From Clostridia bacterium (GTDB taxonomy: Bacteria; Bacillota; Clostridia; Oscillospirales; CAG-272), in NCBI GenBank assembly GCA_024405755.1, contig JAKSOD010000001.1, positions 85,039 through 149,038 of the forward strand: a stretch of 64,000 nucleotides of DNA, in the 5' to 3' direction. Shown in pieces: positions 1,840 to 56,443 of this stretch. The notes below the pieces were generated by a model. That model was not told where the DNA came from and did not search any database. It worked only from the letters and a program-made list of their open reading frames with translations. Numbering within the stretch: position 1 is the first letter of the stretch; the number at the start of each line of letters is the position of its first letter. Both the position numbers and the translations under genes were made by a program.

Positions 1840-2564
1840 TGCTGCTTGATATTACGGATTATAAAATTAATGCAGGAATACCGCATAAACTGCGTGCTGC
1901 GGTGATTGCTGATATACACGACGAAAAATTCGATAGAGTCTATTCCGAGATCAAGGCAAGAAATGTTGATTTTATACTGATTCCCGGAGATATCATTAAC
2001 GGTCACAGACACTCAGCCGTAAACAGTTTTGAAATGCTTGAAGTTTTTCAGAAAACATTTCCGACATTTATGTCTCTCGGAAATCACGAAACAGTCGGCT
2101 ACAATGAAGTAATCAAGACTGCCCGAAATGCCGGTATCGAACTTCTTGAAGACAGAAGCGTAAGATTCGGAGGACTGAATATCGGAGGACTGACTTCCGG
2201 TTACGTTATGGAAAGTGAACATTTAAAGCAGAATCATTTCAGGAAAACTCCGGAACCGAGACTTGATTGGCTCAGAAGATATGCGGCAGAGGACGGATTC
2301 AAAGTATTGCTTTGTCATCATCCGGAATACTACGTACGATACGTCAGAAATCTGCCGGTCGATCTGACAATATCGGGGCACGCACACGGCGGACAGTGGA
2401 GAGTATTCGGTCAGCCACTGTTTGCTCCCGGGCAGGGACTCTTTCCGAAATATGCTCAGGGATTCCATGAGGGAAGACTTATCGTCAGCCGCGGACTTGC
2501 GAATAATGCTCCCGTGCCGCGTTTCTTTAACCCGCGCGAACTGATATTTATTGATTTTGAATAA
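1839..2564 (+). CDS. Metallophosphoesterase family protein
   Basis: Motifs DIHD, GDIINGH, GNHE and SGHAHGGQ. The start codon overlaps the coaD stop. Confidence 0.75.
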   Translation: MLLDITDYKINAGIPHKLRAAVIADIHDEKFDRVYSEIKARNVDFILIPGDIINGHRHSAVNSFEMLEVFQKTFPTFMSLGNHETVGYNEVIKTARNAGIELLEDRSVRFGGLNIGGLTSGYVMESEHLKQNHFRKTPEPRLDWLRRYAAEDGFKVLLCHHPEYYVRYVRNLPVDLTISGHAHGGQWRVFGQPLFAPGQGLFPKYAQGFHEGRLIVSRGLANNAPVPRFFNPRELIFIDFE

Positions 2565-2566
2565 AA

Positions 2567-2602
2567 AATTCCGCCGCGGAAAAAGACCGCGGCGGAATTT
2601 TT
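2567..2602 (+). terminator. Intrinsic terminator after the rsmD-coaD-phosphoesterase operon
   Basis: 12-bp perfect stem AATTCCGCCGCG / CGCGGCGGAATT with a 9-nt loop, running into a T5 tract. Confidence 0.75.
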
Positions 2603-2711
2603 GGGGGAGCTTGTACTGCAAAAAAGCGGACAAATTTATAAAGACAAGCATAAAAAATATGACGTTGTCATAAGGATTAATGAACAAATGCATAGAGCGG
2701 AGGATCACCTT

Positions 2712-4190
2712 ATGACAGACGCAAGCATATACCGGGATATTGCCGGAAGAACCGGCGGGAATGTTTATATCGGGGTCGTCGGACCTGTAAGAACGGGAAA
2801 ATCAACATTTATAAAACGTTTTATGGAATCCCTTGTTCTTCCGAATATCACGGAAGGGTACGACAGAGATAGAGCGCGGGACGAATTGCCTCAGAGCGCT
2901 GCCGGAAAAACGGTCATGACCACCGAACCGAAATTTATTCCGGACGAAGCAGTGGAAATAAATCCCGGAGGTGTGGGGAAACTGAGGGTCAGAATGATCG
3001 ACTGCGTCGGTTATGTCGTACCGGAAGCACTCGGAGTGCTTGAAAACGGTCAGCCGAGGCTCGTGCGAACACCGTGGAGTGAAGATCCCGTTCCTTTTAT
3101 TGAAGCGGCGGAAACGGGGACACGAAAAGTAATCAAGGAACATTCAACCGTTGGAATGGTAGTCACAACTGACGGAAGCATAGCCGATATTCCGCGTGAA
3201 GCGTATATTGAATCGGAAGAAAGAGTAGTCCGTGAACTGCGCGAACTCGGCAAGCCGTTTGCCGTAATTCTGAATTCGGCAAAGCCTTCAAGCGACGCCG
3301 CCGTTGCCCTCGGACATGAACTTGAATCGAAATACGGTGTACCCGTTGCGCTGGTTAACTGTCTTGACCTTGATTCAGAAGATATTCAGAATATTCTTGC
3401 CATGGTACTCAATGAATTCCCGGTAACTGAAGTCACGGTGTCGCTGCCGGATTGGATAGCCGCACTTCCGGAAGACCACGAGATACGCCGTTCGGTCGGT
3501 GACTCTGTGCGTGAGTGCGCAGCAGGGGCAAAAAAGATCGGAGAGATTGACGACGCTTTTGCCGGACTTGAAAAAAATGAATATATATCTGACGCGAAAA
3601 TAAAGAACGTGGATCTCGGAACCGGAAAAGCGGAAATCGTTTGCGAAATGCGCCGCGGACTTTATTATGATGTCCTCGGTCAGATGACGGGTTTTTCAAT
3701 AAAAAGCGAAGAAGAAATGTTTGCATTGCTTTGCGAGCTTGCGGAAGTCAAGAAAAAATTCGATAAGATTGACCGTGCGCTTTCTGATGCCGAGGATCGC
3801 GGATACGGAATAGTTATGCCGGATGTCAGCGAACTGCATCTTGAAGAGCCGGAAATCGTAAGACATTCAGGAGGATACGGTGTAAAGCTGAGAGCTTCCG
3901 CCCAATCTATCCATATGATACGCGCAAATATCGAAACGGAAATCAGCCCGGTAGTCGGAACGGAACAACAGTCTGAGGACCTTGTAAAATATCTCCTGCA
4001 CGAATTTGAGGAATCTCCCGCACAAATATGGGAATCAAATATATTCGGAAAATCCTTATACGAACTTGTAAACGAAGGACTTCATTCAAAACTCGAACAT
4101 ATGCCTGATGATGCTCGTACGAAACTATCAGAGACTCTTGAACGAATCATAAATGAAGGAAGCGGAGGACTTATATGCATCCTTCTGTGA
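2712..4190 (+). CDS. spoIVA: Stage IV sporulation protein A (spore coat morphogenetic ATPase)
   Basis: Matches my recollection of B. subtilis SpoIVA along its length: YRDIAGRTGGNVYIGVVGPVRTGKSTFIKRFME (Walker A), DELPQSAAGKTVMTTEPKF, and C-terminal ETLERIINEGSGGLICILL. ATG 2712 has GGAGGA 7 nt upstream and gives 492 aa. Confidence 0.9.
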   Translation: MTDASIYRDIAGRTGGNVYIGVVGPVRTGKSTFIKRFMESLVLPNITEGYDRDRARDELPQSAAGKTVMTTEPKFIPDEAVEINPGGVGKLRVRMIDCVGYVVPEALGVLENGQPRLVRTPWSEDPVPFIEAAETGTRKVIKEHSTVGMVVTTDGSIADIPREAYIESEERVVRELRELGKPFAVILNSAKPSSDAAVALGHELESKYGVPVALVNCLDLDSEDIQNILAMVLNEFPVTEVTVSLPDWIAALPEDHEIRRSVGDSVRECAAGAKKIGEIDDAFAGLEKNEYISDAKIKNVDLGTGKAEIVCEMRRGLYYDVLGQMTGFSIKSEEEMFALLCELAEVKKKFDKIDRALSDAEDRGYGIVMPDVSELHLEEPEIVRHSGGYGVKLRASAQSIHMIRANIETEISPVVGTEQQSEDLVKYLLHEFEESPAQIWESNIFGKSLYELVNEGLHSKLEHMPDDARTKLSETLERIINEGSGGLICILL

Positions 4191-4331: not shown

Positions 4332-5162
4332 CTATCTTTCAATTATTGCAATTATCAATAAATGCAAAGGGTAGAACGCATAAAATGAATAACTGTAAAT
4401 CTTTCTCAGTATTTTGTTTTCAAGGCTGATGCCGCGTTTGCCATTAAAAGGCAAAATAAACAGCAGAGAGAAAGCGGCATAAATCTGTTCCGACTGCCAT
4501 TCTGATGGTTTGACAGGTGTTATTACGGTGTCTGAAATTAACGGAAAATAATCAGATAAACAAGCAACTGCAGAGAGAAAATAATATTTGAGAATGAATC
4601 TTGCAGCAAACGCGAGCGTGACGGCACAAATAAGGGAAAGAGATCTGATCCGTGCCGAAATATCTGACGTGAGCATTTCACTTTCGGCTGTCTTCCCGGC
4701 CGCGACGGATTCGGGAAAAGTGCAGAAATAAAAATACAGAACGATAAGTGCCACTCCCCATGCGCCGTAGTCAGTTGAAAACCGTTCAGCAATGAACATA
4801 CAGAATCCGGCAGGAAGAAGTGAGAGGAGAGAAAGAGGAAATGAATATCTGATCCTGTCGGCAAGAATTACGGCGAGAAGTCCGAGTGCCAACGTAAACA
4901 TCACGTTGTAACCTTCAACATGCAGTCTACCGTAAAAGCAGTAATCGTATACGTGTTCGCTGAGTATCCCGAATAACAGTATCCGGACAAGGTATTTGAA
5001 CGGATTGGAAGTCTTTTTGTAACCGAAAGCAATAAGATAGGCAAAAATCGGAAAAGATATTCTTCCGATCATACGAAGCGCGGGCAGAGAAGAGTTATGA
5101 TAACCTATATGATCGGCGAGCATTGTAAGGCACGCAGCGATTTTCAGTATCAGTGAACTCAT
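4332..5162 (-). CDS. TraX family membrane protein
   Basis: N-terminus LILKIAACLTMLADHIGY matches the TraX-family signature. The protein is polytopic and hydrophobic throughout. Confidence 0.7.
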   Translation of the reverse strand: MSSLILKIAACLTMLADHIGYHNSSLPALRMIGRISFPIFAYLIAFGYKKTSNPFKYLVRILLFGILSEHVYDYCFYGRLHVEGYNVMFTLALGLLAVILADRIRYSFPLSLLSLLPAGFCMFIAERFSTDYGAWGVALIVLYFYFCTFPESVAAGKTAESEMLTSDISARIRSLSLICAVTLAFAARFILKYYFLSAVACLSDYFPLISDTVITPVKPSEWQSEQIYAAFSLLFILPFNGKRGISLENKILRKIYSYSFYAFYPLHLLIIAIIER

Positions 5163-5737
5163 AGATCTTCCGCAAAAATGAGATTTCCGTCCGCGTCAAG
5201 GTCAAGACGCACAAGGGAGTGAAGATTGAGTCCCGCCTCGCGGAGTTTGCGTCCACCCGGTTGAAATGCTTTTTCAATGCAGATCCCGGCACCTACGACT
5301 TCCGCGCCTGCCTGATTCACTATGTCGATAAGACCGCGGAGTGCTTCACCGTCGGCAAGAAAGTCATCTATGATAAGGACCCTGTCGTCCGGAGAAATGT
5401 ATCTCTGATCCACTTTAACATCAAATACAGTACCTTTTGTAAACGAGCGGACACGTGAGCAGAAGACTTTTTCAGTGAGGTTACGCGACTGCGATTTCTT
5501 GGCGAAAACTACGTTCACACCGAAATACCTTGCGGCAATGCACGCAATTCCGATCCCGGATGCTTCGATTGTAAGTATAACCGTTGGTTTTTTATCACCG
5601 AAAAGACGATAGAATTCTTTTCCCATTTCATCAATAAGAGGTATGTCCATTCGGTGATTGAGGAAGCCGGATACTATGACGACTCCTCCGGGTTTAAGTT
5701 CAGCATCGTTAAGTATTCTTTGTTTTAACAGTTCCAT
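5159..5737 (-). CDS. xpt: Xanthine phosphoribosyltransferase
   Basis: MELLKQRILNDAELKPGGVVIVSGFLNHRMD resembles the Xpt N-terminus, and VLIIDDFLADGEA is the PRPP-binding loop. The start was moved to ATG 5737. The stop overlaps the traX start. Confidence 0.85.
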   Translation of the reverse strand: MELLKQRILNDAELKPGGVVIVSGFLNHRMDIPLIDEMGKEFYRLFGDKKPTVILTIEASGIGIACIAARYFGVNVVFAKKSQSRNLTEKVFCSRVRSFTKGTVFDVKVDQRYISPDDRVLIIDDFLADGEALRGLIDIVNQAGAEVVGAGICIEKAFQPGGRKLREAGLNLHSLVRLDLDADGNLIFAEDL

Positions 5738-5767
5738 TTTTATGACCATTCTTTCTTTTGAAATATA

Positions 5768-5936
5768 TATAGGGAACCTCTAAATATTCATCGCGGACGG
5801 GATCGCGGTGCTTTATTCCGTCATACTTCACAAAAATCCTTCGTGGTGGGGCAACAACACGTGCGGATTTTTGTTTCGTCTGACGAAAAAATCCCTCGCG
5901 CCCCATCTCGCACTGAACTTTTAGAGGTTCCCTATA
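5768..5936. repeat. Structured intergenic element, divergent copy C
   Basis: 17-bp perfect closing stem TATAGGGAACCTCTAAA / TTTAGAGGTTCCCTATA. It shares the core blocks TTCCGTCATACTTCACAAAA and TCGTCTGACGAAAAA, 44 nt apart, with the copies at 10072 and 44914. Confidence 0.7.
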
Positions 5937-5942
5937 AAAATA

Positions 5943-6329
5943 TTATTGCGGTTGATTATACTTTTCGATCTCCTCGTCAGGCGAACATCTTGAACACGGA
6001 CGTGTTTTTCCGTTTTTCTGTGCATCTTCCGATTTGCCGGAGAATATTTCTGATGAAGATGAGATAGACGGGCAATCGGAGAAATAATGCCAAACTTGTC
6101 CGCCGGAAGTCCAGAACACAACAAAATCTCCGTGACTGTCTGTCTGCGGCATAGTAAGGAGTGATTTTTCAAAAAAATGGTTTTCAATCATTGACTGCAT
6201 TTTTTCAGGTGTCAGAGTTTCTCCTCCGTAAAAATCCTTGACTGAATATCCGATTGCTGCGCATCCTGATATTTGGAAAACAAGAATTACTGAAAGAAGC
6301 AGTATCAATAGCGGTTTCAATCGATCCAT
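5943..6329 (-). CDS. Small lipoprotein with a Cys-containing C-terminal motif
   Basis: Start moved to MDRLKPLLILLLSVILVFQISGC (lipobox ISGC), 9 nt after the upstream stop. The C-terminus WHYFSDC...GKTRPCSRC resembles the (Y/W)H-x4-C...PC-x2-C tail seen on many secreted Firmicute proteins. No family name is assigned. Confidence 0.6.
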   Translation of the reverse strand: MDRLKPLLILLLSVILVFQISGCAAIGYSVKDFYGGETLTPEKMQSMIENHFFEKSLLTMPQTDSHGDFVVFWTSGGQVWHYFSDCPSISSSSEIFSGKSEDAQKNGKTRPCSRCSPDEEIEKYNQPQ

Positions 6330-6337
6330 ATGAACTT

Positions 6338-7240
6338 TCAACGGAAGAAGCGTTCCATCATATCGAGTTTTGCACCCGAATATTCGTATGCACCTTTGTA
6401 ATCGGATATTGCACTGCAGCATTTTTCAAGATCGGAGAAAACGAAGTACATTACGGGAGCGGGAAGAGAAACCGTGTCGCTGAGCATTTTTTTAAGAATC
6501 TGATGAGCCGCTGAAAAATCATTCTTTTCCATAAGGAGACGTGCTTTTATGTGTTTCGCTAATAGAATGTTGTTTTCATCCGTAGATTCGGAATAAGCCG
6601 CTGGGGATATCAGACTTTGAGTCTCAGCTTCCGTACCGCGGGAATTCATACTTATGAACACGGAGGAATAGCGGCAGAAAGGGTCTGAGAGTGTGTCGGG
6701 AGGAACGGAATAAGCAGCGTCGTCGGAATCAAATGAAGGGGAAACTTCGCGCATATAAGCAAGATATACAGTTCCTGTTTTTTTGATAAGCCTCAGTTGA
6801 TACGGATCGTCATTTTCAAGGCGATCACGGCATAAATCACTGAAAAGCGAACCGGCAAGCCGCAGATTACCTGAGTTAAATGCGTCTTTGGCAGAGTTGA
6901 AAAAACAGATTTTGCGAATATATTCAGTCTCGTCGTCATTTCCGCCGAGAGAATCGCACAGATCAAGACAGATCTCCCAATCTCCCGCTGCAAATGCGCT
7001 CCGGATATCAGGCATTCCGGTCATTTTTCGATACATGAATTCTTCTTTGTTATCCGCAAGAAGCAGTCCTGCAGGCACTCCGAGTCTTTCGGAAAGATAA
7101 AGCAGGGTAGGCAGAGAGGGAAGTGCACTGCCGTTTTCTATCCGGCTGAGCATATTCCGTGTTATTTCAGATCCCGCAAGTTCCGATTGAGTCATCATCT
7201 TTGCGTTTCTGAGCGTTTTTATCTTTTTTCCGATATCCAT
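6338..7240 (-). CDS. XRE-family HTH transcriptional regulator with a helical-repeat (TPR-like) C-terminal domain
   Basis: N-terminal HTH IKTLRNAKMMTQSELAGSEITRNMLSRIENGSALPSLPTLLYLSERLGV, followed by about 230 aa of helical repeat. Confidence 0.7.
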   Translation of the reverse strand: MDIGKKIKTLRNAKMMTQSELAGSEITRNMLSRIENGSALPSLPTLLYLSERLGVPAGLLLADNKEEFMYRKMTGMPDIRSAFAAGDWEICLDLCDSLGGNDDETEYIRKICFFNSAKDAFNSGNLRLAGSLFSDLCRDRLENDDPYQLRLIKKTGTVYLAYMREVSPSFDSDDAAYSVPPDTLSDPFCRYSSVFISMNSRGTEAETQSLISPAAYSESTDENNILLAKHIKARLLMEKNDFSAAHQILKKMLSDTVSLPAPVMYFVFSDLEKCCSAISDYKGAYEYSGAKLDMMERFFR

Positions 7241-7270: not shown

Positions 7271-8461
7271 TTATTGTCTTTTGACCTTTTTAAAGAAGTC
7301 ACGCAGACTGTCGCTGCCGATATGTTTGCTGCGAGAGACTCGATCTTTTTTTCTTTGTTGTTTTATGCTTTCGTCTGACGCTTTTTTTTCACCTCCGGGG
7401 TTCGGAGCGAAGACGGTATTATTACTGTCTGTTCCGGTGCTGCGTACGGATTCAGCAGGAATATCCGATTTATTTTCCTGTCTGCCGTATTTTTTCTCAC
7501 ATTCTTCTTCTGGAGGCATATCTTCTGTATCGCAGCCGATTTCCGAAATGCGTTTTTCAATTTCAGATTCAAGTGCGTATCTTATCTGAGATACTTTTAT
7601 TGAGGTGTTTGAATTGTTGACGGTTATCTGTTCACTTAATTGTTCGGTTGCGTTTTCTGCTTTTTCTACTGTCTGCATAATTTCTCCTATACTGCTCTGA
7701 GACGCTTTATCTATCATTTCATAAATATCACGCATAGCTGTATCGGCCTTTGTTCTGACGATTTCACGGGCAAGTTCCGCTTCGAGCGCAGCTTCACGTC
7801 TGATGTCCACAGCATCTCTTCTCGCATTTCGGATGATCTGTTCCGCTTCTGACTTTGCTGCTGCGCTGGTTTCAATACATTCGGAGTCAGAAGAGAATTC
7901 CGGAACAATATTCTTGATTTCCGAGAATCGTTTGTCCGATTCAGTAATCTTTTCCGTAAGTTCGTTTATCTTTGACTCATATTCCTGTTTTTCGGCGGAT
8001 AAGTCAGAAAGTCTGTTTTCGAGGTCTTCTTTTTGGGCGAGTATGTCAGCAAGTCTGTTTTCAATGCTCTTTTTTCCTGACTCTGCTGTTGTCAGTTTTT
8101 CCACAAGTTCACTGACAGATGAACGTGCTGCGTCCAGATCAGATTCAATGGATTGTTTCTCGGTGTTGAACTCTTTTTTCAGCAATTCGAACTTTGTATT
8201 CAGATCGTCATTTTCGGCTTTCAGATTATTGTATTCATTTTTTTGGTTAATGAGTTCATTTTCAAGCGTATCCGATTTTTCACGTGCGTGTGCAGCATCC
8301 AGAAGTGCGTCGGAGAGTTTTTTTTCTGTTTCAGTCAGTTCGGCGGCGTGTTCTTTATCCATTTCGGCTATATAATCGTTAACGTCGTTTTTATTGTATC
8401 CTCTGAATGATCTGCCGAATACAATCGGACGTTTTTCCTCGCCCCGGTTTTCTTTAGACAT
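7271..8461 (-). CDS. DivIVA domain-containing coiled-coil protein
   Basis: N-terminal FGRSFRGYNKNDVNDYIAEM (DivIVA motif) followed by long E/K/L-rich coiled coil. Confidence 0.75.
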   Translation of the reverse strand: MSKENRGEEKRPIVFGRSFRGYNKNDVNDYIAEMDKEHAAELTETEKKLSDALLDAAHAREKSDTLENELINQKNEYNNLKAENDDLNTKFELLKKEFNTEKQSIESDLDAARSSVSELVEKLTTAESGKKSIENRLADILAQKEDLENRLSDLSAEKQEYESKINELTEKITESDKRFSEIKNIVPEFSSDSECIETSAAAKSEAEQIIRNARRDAVDIRREAALEAELAREIVRTKADTAMRDIYEMIDKASQSSIGEIMQTVEKAENATEQLSEQITVNNSNTSIKVSQIRYALESEIEKRISEIGCDTEDMPPEEECEKKYGRQENKSDIPAESVRSTGTDSNNTVFAPNPGGEKKASDESIKQQRKKDRVSRSKHIGSDSLRDFFKKVKRQ

Positions 8462-8641: not shown

Positions 8642-10063
8642 ATGAAAAGAAATCACTATCTTCTCAGTATTGCAGCGTTTCTGATGGCAATGATCTGCAT
8701 AGCTCTGGCAGGATGCACCGGAAACGATACATACAACGTAGACAACGGTACATCGGACCTTTCATCTTCAGTCACGGAAACGGATACGTCCGCTTATGGA
8801 AAGATCGTTCTGATTGACAAAAATAAAAACGATTTTTCAATTATCAGGGGCATGTATGCAGAAATAGATGAAATCGAAGCGGCAAAACAACTCAATTCTG
8901 CATTCACATCAAAGTTTTCCTCAACTTGGGACTTTGTGATCAAGGATGATTTTGTTAAAGGTGCTTCAAAAGATGATGTCATTTCCGACAATGCACGGGA
9001 AATCCTTGTGGGTTATACTAACAGAAAGGAAAGCCGTGAAACTTTTGTTGGACTTAAAAAGGATCAGTATGTTATTAAGTTCGTCGGCAGTAAACTCGTA
9101 ATAATCGGATCAGATCAGTATTCCACACTTGCTGCAGTTGAGGAGTTTGTGAAGAATGTTGTTGAAAAGAACGAGACTTCGGAGCTTTTTGCCCTTTCAC
9201 CTGATTTTGTGCTGACCGGCACGGCAAAATTACGCCAGGTTTCGATTAATCCCGAAGCGTCATACAGACTCTTTAGTTGGAATCTCGGTTGTTACGTAGG
9301 AGGAAGTACCGGTTCATCTGAAGCAGTCAAAATTATTCTGAGGTATCTTCCCGACATACTTGCCTGTCAGGAAAGTGACAAAAAAGTTCATTCCAATATC
9401 CTTCAAAAAGTGCTTGATTCGAATTCCGATTATGCTTATGCCATGAAAATGCATCCCGGAACTTCAACATATAATTATACTCCAATAATCTACAAAAAAA
9501 CCTTGTTTGATCTTGTCGATTCGGGAGTTGAATGGCTCGACGGAAGATATACCGGGACAAATACAAAATCCCTGTCATGGGCGGTCTTTAAAGATAAAAA
9601 CGATATTCAGTTTGCAATGGTAAACTTCCACGGTGCTGTGTGTTCCGCAACTTATAAAGGATATGAGGATATGACTTCCGAAGAGCGTACCGCTCAGGCA
9701 CTTGCTTGGAAGATCGATAACGTCAGACAAGTTCTTGGAGTAAGAGACAGAATATACGCTGAATACGGAGAGATACCGTTTACTGTAAACGGAGACTGCA
9801 ACTTCAATTCAGACAGCGTACCATACGCCAATATGATCAAAGGTGGAATGTATGATGCAGAGAAAACAGCAAAGATCAAAACGACGGGATACACCACTTC
9901 ATTCACATATGGAAATTTTTATAAGTCCGGTAAGAGTATAGACCATATATTCGGTATCAACGGCATAGATTTTGTGGTATTTGAAATTGTAAGGGATGCG
10001 GAAGTCAAGACTGCGAGCGATCATTGCCCGGTCTACGTTGATTACAATATCGGAATTAAATAA
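8642..10063 (+). CDS. Endonuclease/exonuclease/phosphatase (EEP) family lipoprotein
   Basis: Signal peptide with lipobox LAGC. The C-terminal SDHCPVYVDY is the typical EEP catalytic His motif. Confidence 0.75.
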   Translation: MKRNHYLLSIAAFLMAMICIALAGCTGNDTYNVDNGTSDLSSSVTETDTSAYGKIVLIDKNKNDFSIIRGMYAEIDEIEAAKQLNSAFTSKFSSTWDFVIKDDFVKGASKDDVISDNAREILVGYTNRKESRETFVGLKKDQYVIKFVGSKLVIIGSDQYSTLAAVEEFVKNVVEKNETSELFALSPDFVLTGTAKLRQVSINPEASYRLFSWNLGCYVGGSTGSSEAVKIILRYLPDILACQESDKKVHSNILQKVLDSNSDYAYAMKMHPGTSTYNYTPIIYKKTLFDLVDSGVEWLDGRYTGTNTKSLSWAVFKDKNDIQFAMVNFHGAVCSATYKGYEDMTSEERTAQALAWKIDNVRQVLGVRDRIYAEYGEIPFTVNGDCNFNSDSVPYANMIKGGMYDAEKTAKIKTTGYTTSFTYGNFYKSGKSIDHIFGINGIDFVVFEIVRDAEVKTASDHCPVYVDYNIGIK

Positions 10064-10071
10064 GTTCGATT

Positions 10072-10251
10072 TTAAGGCAACACCGCACAATTCACGGCTT
10101 ACGCCTTGACTGCGCATATGCTTGCATCTTTTCCGTCATACTTCACAAAATTTCGTTGAAATAGATTAACTATTCCTTCCTCATTTTGTATCGTCTGACG
10201 AAAAATCTGACGGCGCATCTGCACCGCCAGAATTGTGGGGTATTGCCTTAA
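10072..10251. repeat. Structured intergenic element, copy A (180 bp)
   Basis: 22-nt terminal inverted repeat TTAAGGCAACACCGCACAATTC / GAATTGTGGGGTATTGCCTTAA. By hand alignment 173/180 positions are identical to 44914-45093. Confidence 0.8.
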
Positions 10252-10287
10252 GTTGAAACCGGCACGCTTCTGCGTGCCGGTTTCAAC
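10252..10287. terminator. Hairpin between convergent genes (terminator candidate, no clear U-tract)
   Basis: 15-bp perfect stem GTTGAAACCGGCACG / CGTGCCGGTTTCAAC with a 6-nt loop. Confidence 0.5.
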
Positions 10288-10299
10288 TGTATAAAACAC

Positions 10300-10740
10300 T
10301 TAATTGCGTTTTTTCCCTGAGGGATCAGAACGAAGTTCGCGGTCTTTTTTCATTGCTTTTTTAAGGCGTGAACAAGTAATCCCTATAATCACTGCTGATA
10401 CAGCATAGATTACGATAATGAGAAGAAGTCCCGTGAAACGTCCTGATCCGGTGACGCCTGATGGCAGAAGAATGCAAGTGAATGCGCCGGTTACAGTCAA
10501 AAGAAAATGAAGGAACCATCTGATGATAGGATCCGGCCTTTCCCGGCACAGCAGAGTATTGGCTATACCGAAAAGAAATGAAAACGGGAGAAACAGAAAT
10601 ATTCTCACAGCGTCAAGTCCCGCGCCGTTTTCAACTCCGGAATAGAGAATCATTATTATTAAACTGAATAATGACGTGACCGCAGTATAGCATATTGCGG
10701 TACCAATAAGTGTTTTCTTAAAAAAATCTTTTATACTCAT
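10300..10740 (-). CDS. Hypothetical integral membrane protein (about 4 TM helices)
   Basis: Hydrophobic segments throughout and a basic C-terminal tail. No family recognised. Confidence 0.55.
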   Translation of the reverse strand: MSIKDFFKKTLIGTAICYTAVTSLFSLIIMILYSGVENGAGLDAVRIFLFLPFSFLFGIANTLLCRERPDPIIRWFLHFLLTVTGAFTCILLPSGVTGSGRFTGLLLIIVIYAVSAVIIGITCSRLKKAMKKDRELRSDPSGKKRN

Positions 10741-44913: not shown

Positions 44914-45093
44914 TTAAGACAACACCGCACAATTCACGGCTGACGCCTTGACTACGCATATGCTTGCATCTTTTCCGTCATACTTCACAAAATTTCGTTG
45001 AAATAGAGATACTATTCCTTCCTCATTTTGTATCGTCTGACGAAAAATCTGACGGCGCATCTGCACCGCCAGAATTGTGCGGTATTGCCTTAA
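44914..45093. repeat. Structured intergenic element, copy B (180 bp)
   Basis: 173/180 identical to copy A by hand alignment. The 22-nt closing stem has two plus-strand mismatches (A.C and C.A) that become G.U pairs on the minus strand. Confidence 0.8.
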
Positions 45094-55535: not shown

Positions 55536-55603
55536 AATAATACTAATATGATCAGACTTGGAAATATACATGACCTTATAGTTTACGAAAACTAAAAAAT
55601 TGG

Positions 55604-55633
55604 GGCTGTTAAAAAACTTGTTTTTTAACAGCC
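55604..55633. terminator. Bidirectional terminator H4 of the GGCTGTTAAAAAA / TTTTTTAACAGCC hairpin family
   Basis: 13-bp perfect stem with a 4-nt loop, flanked by A-rich and T-rich runs. It lies between convergent genes. Confidence 0.7.
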
Positions 55634-55639
55634 TTAAAT

Positions 55640-56443
55640 TTATTTTTTTAGTTTCAGCGTCTTTTCGTACGCAGAAACCACAGCGTCCATAACGGAAGCA
55701 CGGAATCCGTCGTTTTCAAGCGCGTGAACTCCCGCTATTGTAGTCCCACCGGGACTGCAAACTGAATCTTTCAAGACAGCGGGAGCAGATCCTGATTCAA
55801 GTATCATTTTTGCAGATCCCAACATCATCTGTGCGGCATATTCGTATGCGGATTTTCTCGGAAGTCCACATTCAACACCTGCGTCGGCAAGTGCTTCGGC
55901 GAAAATGTAGGCAAAAGCCGGACCGCATCCCGAAACAGCAGACCCCGCGTCAATCAGTTTTTCGGCGATCATATCAATTCTGCCTGCGGCTGACATCATG
56001 GACCTGAATTCGTCGAGTGTTTCTTCGGAAACATTATCGGAAGCAGTGCAGAGAATCATTCCTTCGCCGACGGCACAGGGAGTGTTTGGCATAATGCGAA
56101 TTATGGGGCAGTCAAACCCGAGATAAGATCGGAAATAAGCAATATCAAGTCCGGCAGCCATTGTAACGAGAATAAAGTCGTTTCTCGATATTAGTTCCGG
56201 TTTAATTGAATCAAGGGCATTGCCCATGACTTGCGGTTTTACTCCGAGAAAGATATATTTGCAAAGAGATGAGATTCCGGATATGTCGGCGCAATAAACT
56301 CCGAACTCCTGCCTTATTGCTTCCGTAAGAGCCGGATAATTATCACATACGGCAATTTTTTCACCTCCGAGTGCCTTCGCTGCGCAGCGTGCAAGAGCTC
56401 CGCCCATATTCCCGCATCCGATAAAACCTGCAGTAAATTTCAT
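55640..56443 (-). CDS. proC: Pyrroline-5-carboxylate reductase
   Basis: MKFTAGFIGCGNMGGAL (Rossmann motif) with AGGAGGG upstream, and C-terminal SPGGTTIAG. Confidence 0.9.
   Translation of the reverse strand: MKFTAGFIGCGNMGGALARCAAKALGGEKIAVCDNYPALTEAIRQEFGVYCADISGISSLCKYIFLGVKPQVMGNALDSIKPELISRNDFILVTMAAGLDIAYFRSYLGFDCPIIRIMPNTPCAVGEGMILCTASDNVSEETLDEFRSMMSAAGRIDMIAEKLIDAGSAVSGCGPAFAYIFAEALADAGVECGLPRKSAYEYAAQMMLGSAKMILESGSAPAVLKDSVCSPGGTTIAGVHALENDGFRASVMDAVVSAYEKTLKLKK

Follow-up and report, generated by a model that had tools for sequence, protein, structure and literature searches.

A non-coding repeat of 180 bases occurs twice, almost unchanged, in the 64,000-nucleotide stretch of clostridial DNA that was analysed here (the window). 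The question that this locus raises is whether such copies represent a structured RNA or insertions of a mobile element, two readings that the earlier note had left open. We conclude that the element is a MITE. In the full account, to which we assign a probability of about 0.9, a non-coding DNA transposon of 172 bp is bounded by terminal inverted repeats of about 18 nt (GGCAAYACCGCAYAATTC). It inserts in A+T-rich intergenic DNA at YTAR-like 4-mers (TTAA, TTAG, CTAA), which are duplicated, and it would be mobilised in trans by the DDE transposase of an IS5-family IS of about 1.13 kb with the same termini.

Copies of the repeat in the window

Copies A (10072-10251) and B (44914-45093) were aligned with MAFFT and were also returned by a repeat search (96%). 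The alignment is gapless over 180 nt, with 173 identical positions, and the seven differences lie exactly where the earlier note had placed them. The gene stop at 10063 and the hairpin beside copy A were also described correctly in that note. Its count of two copies has to be revised, however, because the window contains a third, diverged member on the minus strand (5768-5936 including flanks). The 22-nt end consensus has four matches in the window, compared to 0.00 expected from shuffled sequences, and inverted repeats of 18-22 nt are present in both A and B and in every family member. The coordinates of the features are given in Table 1.

Table 1. Features of the repeat copies and their immediate context in the window
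Feature	Position	Strand	Evidence
MITE copy A, element proper (172 bp)	10076..10247	-	Covariance model 188 bits (-) versus 55.7 (+); better-folding strand is -; termini identical to IS5-family IS ends
Target-site duplication TTAA, copy A, low side	10072..10075	.	Sequence; direct repeats and filled/empty sites in the family
Target-site duplication TTAA, copy A, high side	10248..10251	.	Sequence; family evidence
Terminal inverted repeat of copy A, IRR-type, GGCAACACCGCACAATTC	10076..10093	+	18/18 identical to the right end of IS copies L279 and L284
Terminal inverted repeat of copy A, IRL-type, GGCAAT, GGCAATACCCCACAATTC (minus-strand reading)	10230..10247	-	Most IS left ends likewise GGCAAT
MITE copy B, element proper (172 bp)	44918..45089	-	Covariance model 187.9 bits (-)
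Target-site duplication TTAA, copy B, low side	44914..44917	.	Sequence; family evidence
Target-site duplication TTAA, copy B, high side	45090..45093	.	Sequence; family evidence
Third, diverged member (161 bp), termini GGGAACCTCTAAAAGTTC...GAATATTTAGAGGTTCCC	5772..5932	-	Covariance model 63 bits, E 6e-14; interior-only nhmmer profile E 2e-14; inverted-repeat search
Symmetric G+C-rich hairpin (context only, outside the element)	10252..10287	.	Separates convergent genes 8642..10063 (+) and 10300..10740 (-); copy A inserted beside it

The third copy has kept the interior core, and its termini are identical to the canonical repeat at 11 of 19 positions. It is flanked by TATA on both sides (5768-5771 and 5933-5936) and lies between the co-directional minus-strand genes 5943..6422 and 5159..5749, probably in an operon spacer. 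Its termini (GGGAACCTCTAAAAGTTC) were also seen in a 55-nt mini-element with TAAA/TAAA flanks (L275) and at contig edges (L274 and L276).

The gene that stops at 10063, next to copy A (8642..10063, +), encodes a lipoprotein of the endonuclease/exonuclease/phosphatase family. Copy B is located between two divergent promoters, one for the ylxM-ffh operon (-) and one for a cation antiporter gene (+). Inspection of the sequence revealed recognisable -35 and -10 boxes for both neighbours, each on its own side of the element. Copy B is thus upstream of both predicted promoters, and neither neighbouring mRNA should contain it. Among metagenome contigs of sister strains with an identical YlxM, one (L001) breaks 36 nt into copy B and two (L002, L003) end just before it, which is the assembly behaviour of a multi-copy repeat. 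The three window copies, at a gene 3' end, between divergent promoters and in an operon spacer, are most likely neutral insertions, that is, passive passengers.

Elsewhere in the window, a tandem 42-nt direct repeat (79% identical) was found at 7983-8066 inside the ORF 7271..8461 (-), which encodes 396 aa with many charged residues. At 55585-55652, in A+T-rich surroundings, lies an inverted repeat of 33 nt that is 79% complementary around a spacer of 2 nt and that may be a bidirectional terminator.

Target-site duplication and empty sites

The TTAA on each side of copies A and B had been read in the earlier note as either an extension of the stem or a target duplication. At other loci of the family, non-palindromic flanks form direct repeats (CAAG, TTGT, GTAA, TTAG and TTTA; also CTTA and TCAA). 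When complete copies were scanned without a bias towards TTAA, 20 of 35 had identical flanking 4-mers: TTAG six times, CTAA and TTAA three times each, CTTT twice, and others. The YTAR sequences TTAG, CTAA and TTAA together make up 12 of these 20 pairs. As the non-palindromic flanks are direct rather than complementary repeats, TTAA at copies A and B is a duplicated 4-bp target site of the YTAR type, and the stem extension has to be given up.

Hypothetical empty sites were reconstructed and then searched for among the fetched loci. Empty orthologous sites with flanks 98-99% identical were found, and each contains exactly one copy of the 4-mer, so that the element is polymorphic for presence and absence at orthologous positions. 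The filled sites in L153 and L165 (CTTT on both sides) correspond to an empty site with a single CTTT in L222, the filled site in L200 (TTAG on both sides) to an empty one in L169, that in L192 (TTAG) to an empty one in L225, and that in L169 (CATT/CATC) to empty ones in L240 and L200. L169 and L200 are thus reciprocally filled and empty at two sites, which indicates recent transposition.

An IS5-family partner

A 4-bp YTAR duplication is the documented signature of IS5 (PMC5009759), and InsH of E. coli K-12 was therefore chosen as the seed of a search for an autonomous partner. This search of the fetched loci returned an IS5-like gene in L218 that is 44% identical to InsH and lies on one contig with a MITE fragment; the IS ends (GGCAATCCCACACAAAG) match at 13 of 17 positions. 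Relatives of the L218 protein in IMG/VR and in gut and rumen metagenomes belong to complete ISs of about 1129-1137 bp with a single ORF of about 325 aa and ends GGCAAYACCGCAC.... The intact transposase of the IS in L246 has 324 aa. There were 67 complete copies of this ~1.13-kb IS. In L279 and L284, the right end of the IS is identical to the MITE terminus over 18 of 18 nt (GGCAACACCGCACAATTC) and in the same polarity, and the left end has 14 nt in common with the MITE. The IS copies are flanked by CTAA/CTAA (11 times), TTAA/TTAA (six times) and TTAG/TTAG (five times), so that 22 of 23 identical pairs conform to YTAR. With the NCBIfam model of the IS5 family (NF033581, cut-off 140), the full-length L218 protein scores 302 bits and the L248 protein, of which the 232-aa N-terminal part up to the first ambiguous residue was used, scores 239 bits. 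The Pfam domains of the partner transposase are PF01609 (DDE_Tnp_1) and PF05598 (DUF772).

The minus strand of copy A has the polarity of the partner IS, with the IRL-like end at 10247 and the IRR-like end at 10076. Most copies of the IS carry GGCAAT at the left end and GGCAAC at the right end, the same difference as in the MITE. This T/C difference is inherited from the IS, and the G.U pairs that it produces in the closing stem are thus not evidence for an RNA. The likeness between MITE and IS is confined to 14-20 terminal nucleotides, and the interiors are unrelated. The contribution of the IS is limited to the terminal 20 nt or less, and the interior is a rod-like imperfect palindrome.

The earlier note had stated that no transposase lies within the 64 kb. 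For the IS5 type, a tblastn search of the window agrees with this (nothing better than E=1.2), and among the fetched loci no transposase was found in or next to the copies. In about 1.7 Mb of loci selected for the MITE, there was no IS with exactly the MITE ends, and only L218 contained a relative; no IS and MITE were found within 1.2 kb of each other. Searches for an autonomous copy among the MITE matches, using unpaired ends with room for a gene, pairs of ends 400-6000 bp apart with matching flanks, and matches to half an element, produced candidates that all proved to be remnants or neighbouring MITEs. A tblastn search of plasmids with the clostridial transposase gave proteobacterial IS5 copies, none of them in MITE-bearing records (best 40 of at least 5000 matches). 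BLASTN of plasmids and phages with the element itself added nothing but further MITE copies, in records that lack annotation. In a Subdoligranulum variabile record, two 50-kb pieces contain 6-7 MITE copies and no partner.

The earlier note had named filled and empty sites with a TTAA duplication, together with an autonomous partner IS, as the finding that would make this an ordinary MITE. Filled and empty sites with a 4-bp duplication and an autonomous IS with the same termini and duplications were both found, and they identify the element as an ordinary MITE rather than a structured RNA. From the agreement of ends and targets, we infer that this particular transposase moves the MITE, presumably by DDE cut- or copy-and-paste.

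Two further observations are added here. The region L103:3531-5284 contains a candidate 1.75-kb element with inverted repeats that match at 17 of 20 positions (GGGAATTATTGGAGCTTCCC and GGGAATTATTAGATGTTCCC). In loci L278-L357, many complete ISs have two unlike YTAR 4-mers at their ends (CTAG/TTAG, TTAA/CTAA), which points to recombination among the ISs or to contigs that were joined wrongly at the repeat.

Size, hosts and derivatives of the family

The exact 22-nt end pattern occurs in at least 117 stretches from at least 56 clostridial assemblies in a collection with one genome per species. An 18-nt pattern without TTAA added at least 120 stretches from IMG/VR. The carriers among the matches listed include Ruminococcus, Acutalibacter, Gemmiger, Subdoligranulum, Candidatus Cibiobacter, Neglectibacter, Pseudoflavonifractor, Anaerotignum and Mageeibacillus, as well as MAGs labelled Lachnospiraceae and Anaerovoracaceae. 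Ruminococcus sp. JL13D9, Acutalibacter intestini M00204 and Gemmiger formicilis DFI.6.10 are carriers that have been cultured. Many of the family matches are at contig ends, which is expected of a repeat. A comparison with Rfam (window and five diverse loci) gave no match at the gathering score, and a permissive E-value returned only noise. As the earlier note had also stated, the element encodes no protein, no long ORF being conserved across it. In the literature, we found no paper with the terminal sequence and none describing the family; a global MITE survey names Ruminococcus and Faecalibacterium only in passing (PMC11602168).

The shortest element proper measures 35 bp and the longest 285 bp. 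The distribution of sizes has its modes at 172 bp, with 43 copies, and at 161 bp, with 19 copies, and truncated remnants are common. Deletion derivatives with identical breakpoints were found at different loci, with sizes of 91 bp (L036, L112), 99 bp (L158, L192) and 35 bp (L024, L093). Since derivatives with the same breakpoints and without most of the interior are present at several loci, the interior is not essential for movement.

Local density can be high: in positions 1-10636 of L189 (IMGVR_UViG_3300029587_000258), five copies in mixed orientation occupy nearly every intergenic spacer of 10.6 kb. Many IMG/VR contigs filed as viral (L125, L136, L144, L166, L172 and many others) have both ends about 50-75 nt inside outward-facing MITE copies. 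These contigs are probably bacterial fragments that were cut at the repeat by the assembler, and their viral or circular status has to be treated with caution.

Predicted lipoproteins of about 480-520 aa, with signal peptide and lipobox, recur beside MITE copies in several genomes (L027:874-2385 and 2553-4046; L041:326-1843; L020:4118-5692; L111:1386-2933; L104:521-2041; L077; L106). In L027, two paralogues are located one on each side of a single MITE copy. These proteins of about 500 aa were considered as a partner and rejected: they lie outside the elements, are 25-42% identical to each other and have no Pfam match.

Secondary structure of the interior

Both strands of the element, the folding of which had likewise been proposed, fold far better than shuffled sequences, and the minus strand does so more strongly. 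For copy A, the predicted energies are -79.5 kcal/mol (z -9.7) on the minus strand and -58.8 kcal/mol (z -6.3) on the plus strand. DNA parameters keep this order (-40.7 versus -32.5 kcal/mol). The consensus from a MAFFT alignment of 18 members is a rod. Its inverted-repeat stem is extended by 10 bp and is accompanied by a small hairpin on the 3' side, whose loop is GNNA, by two more helices and by a variable apical hairpin. The 3'-side hairpin and an unpaired GCAAGCA motif are conserved asymmetric features.

In this alignment, 96.3% of the cells in paired columns can pair, compared to 82.3 +/- 0.9% in shuffled alignments and at most 46% in controls with slid partners. Changes on both sides were found in 23 of the 47 consensus pairs (14.6 +/- 1.6 in shuffles), and on each of five measures of covariation none of 500 shuffles matched the observed value. 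The covariance model was built from 18 members of about 180 nt, and every copy scores higher on one strand. The better-folding strand is constant in 68 of 70 copies, with a mean difference of 20.7 kcal/mol. Among 23 clusters with less than 75% identity between their interiors, it is constant in 22, also when the inverted repeats are removed. Interior G.U pairs number 99 on this strand and 43 on the other, a difference with the same direction in 20 of the 23 clusters. The favoured strand corresponds in polarity to the sense strand of the IS. If a MITE simply decayed neutrally, neither the strong covariation nor the strand asymmetry of folding would be predicted.

The differences between copies A and B fit this pattern of the family, but seven sites by themselves are weak evidence. 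Read on the minus strand, three are in the apical loop, one changes the loop of the side hairpin (GUAA or GUCA, both of the type GNNA), two change G-C to G.U (alignment columns 28/143 and 6/178) and one is a real mismatch, C.C, in copy A (columns 14/170). The two changes to G.U look like broken pairs only on the plus strand.

Evidence on a host function at individual loci

Relative to their flanking genes, copies are oriented at random (22 are antisense, 15 sense, 14 convergent and 10 divergent). The composition of the flanks is symmetric without a bias towards T-tracts, and a scan of copy A and its surroundings gave no promoter-like site. In a small sample of 55 private substitutions from three young clusters, 27% fell in unpaired columns, with 24% expected, and G.U pairs were created 14 times and A.C pairs nine times, which is about neutral. 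Due to the random orientation, the near-neutral private changes and the mobility of short derivatives, a host RNA function at each locus is unlikely. The structural idea of the earlier note therefore survives at the level of the family, where substitutions between subfamilies respect the helices, and does not appear to hold for individual copies, whose private substitutions are near chance.

The scan for terminator-like sites returned a single one, at 10206-10231 (-) in copy A on the better-folding strand, where an 11-bp G+C-rich hairpin is followed by TTTTTCGTCA. Formation of this local hairpin would be in competition with the long-range pairing, which is backed by covariation. A reading of the element as a terminator, based on this hairpin and its T-run on the minus strand, was rejected: some subfamilies have an A-run in place of the T-run or have lost it, and the flanks have no asymmetry in T-richness.

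Alternative explanations and the origin of the fold

We consider it very improbable that the repeats are paralogous genes for a structured non-coding RNA with a host function (an sRNA or a cis-acting UTR element) whose stem is extended by TTAA. The very stable minus-strand fold, the two-sided changes and high pairing, the constancy of the favoured strand, the excess of interior G.U pairs on it and the fact that six of the seven A/B differences are structure-neutral there would all suit such an RNA. They have to be weighed against flanks that are direct repeats, the existence of empty sites, random orientation to neighbouring genes, the position of copy B upstream of both divergent promoters, the lack of a promoter-like site at copy A and of an Rfam family, private substitutions that, in the small sample, are not depleted in stems, and frequent internal deletions that leave the element mobile. 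In addition, the closing stem extends to the ends of the element, so that an internal promoter could not produce it. The strand-specific advantage persists with DNA parameters, the interior conserves structure more than sequence and copies can be dense, as in L189; these points would also agree with an element that acts as single-stranded DNA, either of the REP/RAYT or IS200/IS605 (PATE) type or as an integron attC-like site. However, REP/RAYT and IS200/IS605 elements make no target duplication and would be expected to have a Y1 transposase as partner, and here a 4-bp duplication and a DDE enzyme were found. The termini are true inverted repeats equal to DDE-type IS5 ends, which is not the pattern of subterminal hairpins. 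For attC, the dense copies in L189 are mixed in orientation and form no array, and by inspection the ends TTAAGGC...GCCTTAA do not fit the core sites RYYYAAC/GTTRRRY. We thus give hardly any credence to this explanation.

That the element is a MITE leaves two accounts of why its interior pairs so well. The pairing could be a by-product of DNA mechanics, in which the arms are repeatedly made symmetric again, for example by a fold-back origin, by template switching from arm to arm (quasi-palindrome correction) or by abortive gap repair. The element as a whole is indeed imperfectly palindromic, its deletion derivatives retain this shape, private mutations look neutral, the interior is not needed for mobility, and the T/C difference in the inverted repeats derives from the left and right IS ends rather than from RNA wobble. 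However, template switching should give Watson-Crick symmetry and not wobble pairs that, in 20 of 23 subfamilies with interiors less than 75% identical, accumulate on one and the same strand, and the conserved asymmetric 3'-side hairpin and the unpaired GCAAGCA motif are left unaccounted for. We therefore regard this account as possible but on the whole unlikely. The other account, which we consider quite doubtful, is that the interior is a strand-specific folded module, as RNA or single-stranded DNA, that is needed for proliferation or persistence. It was put forward because pairing rather than sequence survives across more than 20 subfamilies, because the interior persists with diverged termini in the third window copy (11/19), and because the favoured strand always has the polarity of the IS sense strand. 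Such a module could present both ends to an IS5-type transposase on one strand, or it could neutralise read-through transcription.

Together, the data on the MITE suggest that any selection lies on the propagating lineage, or that a symmetrising process at the DNA level acts instead. In our preferred reading, selection would favour the transposing lineage rather than each inserted copy, and copies with a long hairpin may be better tolerated or may be more efficient substrates.

Comparison with known elements

With the IS5 group (E. coli IS5/InsH type), the element shares the 4-bp YTAR target duplication (PMC5009759), termini starting with GG and, through its partner, a transposase related to InsH. 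In contrast to members of this group, it has no transposase gene, is only 172 bp long and has an interior unrelated to the IS, and the termini of E. coli IS5 (GGAAGGTGCGAACAAG) are unlike those of the MITE.

The closest parallel is bcr1, a group-A repeat, as a mobile repeat with compensatory changes. This non-autonomous mobile Firmicutes repeat of about 155 bp from the Bacillus cereus group has short flanking direct repeats of 5 bp and a cruciform-like fold of two stems, is reported to be transcribed, is not conserved in its distribution among strains, and has compensatory base changes that maintain its secondary structure (PMC3184786). The element described here differs from it in the 4-bp YTAR duplication, in a fold made of one long rod with a side hairpin, and in its IS5-family partner.

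Other palindromic MITEs of bacteria are Correia/NEMIS (Neisseria), ERIC (Enterobacteriaceae), RUP (S. pneumoniae), Nezha and Chunjie, and ERIC-type sequences have a TA motif at their flanks (PMC3184786). Like the present element, these are intergenic, 100-240 bp long, bounded by terminal inverted repeats and target duplications, variable in copy number between strains and able to form long hairpins if transcribed; they differ from it in termini, targets and host clades. Correia and RUP elements also use TA. In some of these families, an influence on mRNA processing has been tested.

Type II or Tourist-like MITEs of the PIF/Harbinger group, which are eukaryotic relatives of IS5, have only the terminal repeats and the target preference in common with their partner, and greatly outnumber it. 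By analogy, the present element can be compared to them as a non-autonomous element whose likeness to its partner appears limited to termini and target. Unlike it, Tourist-like MITEs are eukaryotic, make a 3-bp TWA duplication and have no sequence relation to it. The type of element is therefore known, namely a bacterial MITE of the IS5 family in which every defining feature that was tested was found; what is new is the family itself.

Significance

In gut and rumen Clostridia, this family of repeats is widespread and has been active recently. Its copies break metagenome assemblies and yield "viral" contigs that start and end inside them, and its insertions are markers at the strain level. It adds a well-defined pair of a MITE and an IS5-family partner in Firmicutes, and it is a clear case of a MITE interior that is unrelated to the IS and yet has a covarying, strand-biased fold. 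If the interior were a folded module needed by the element, this would be a structural requirement that has not been described for IS5-family transposition. A functional fold would bear on the synapsis or the tolerance of very short elements.
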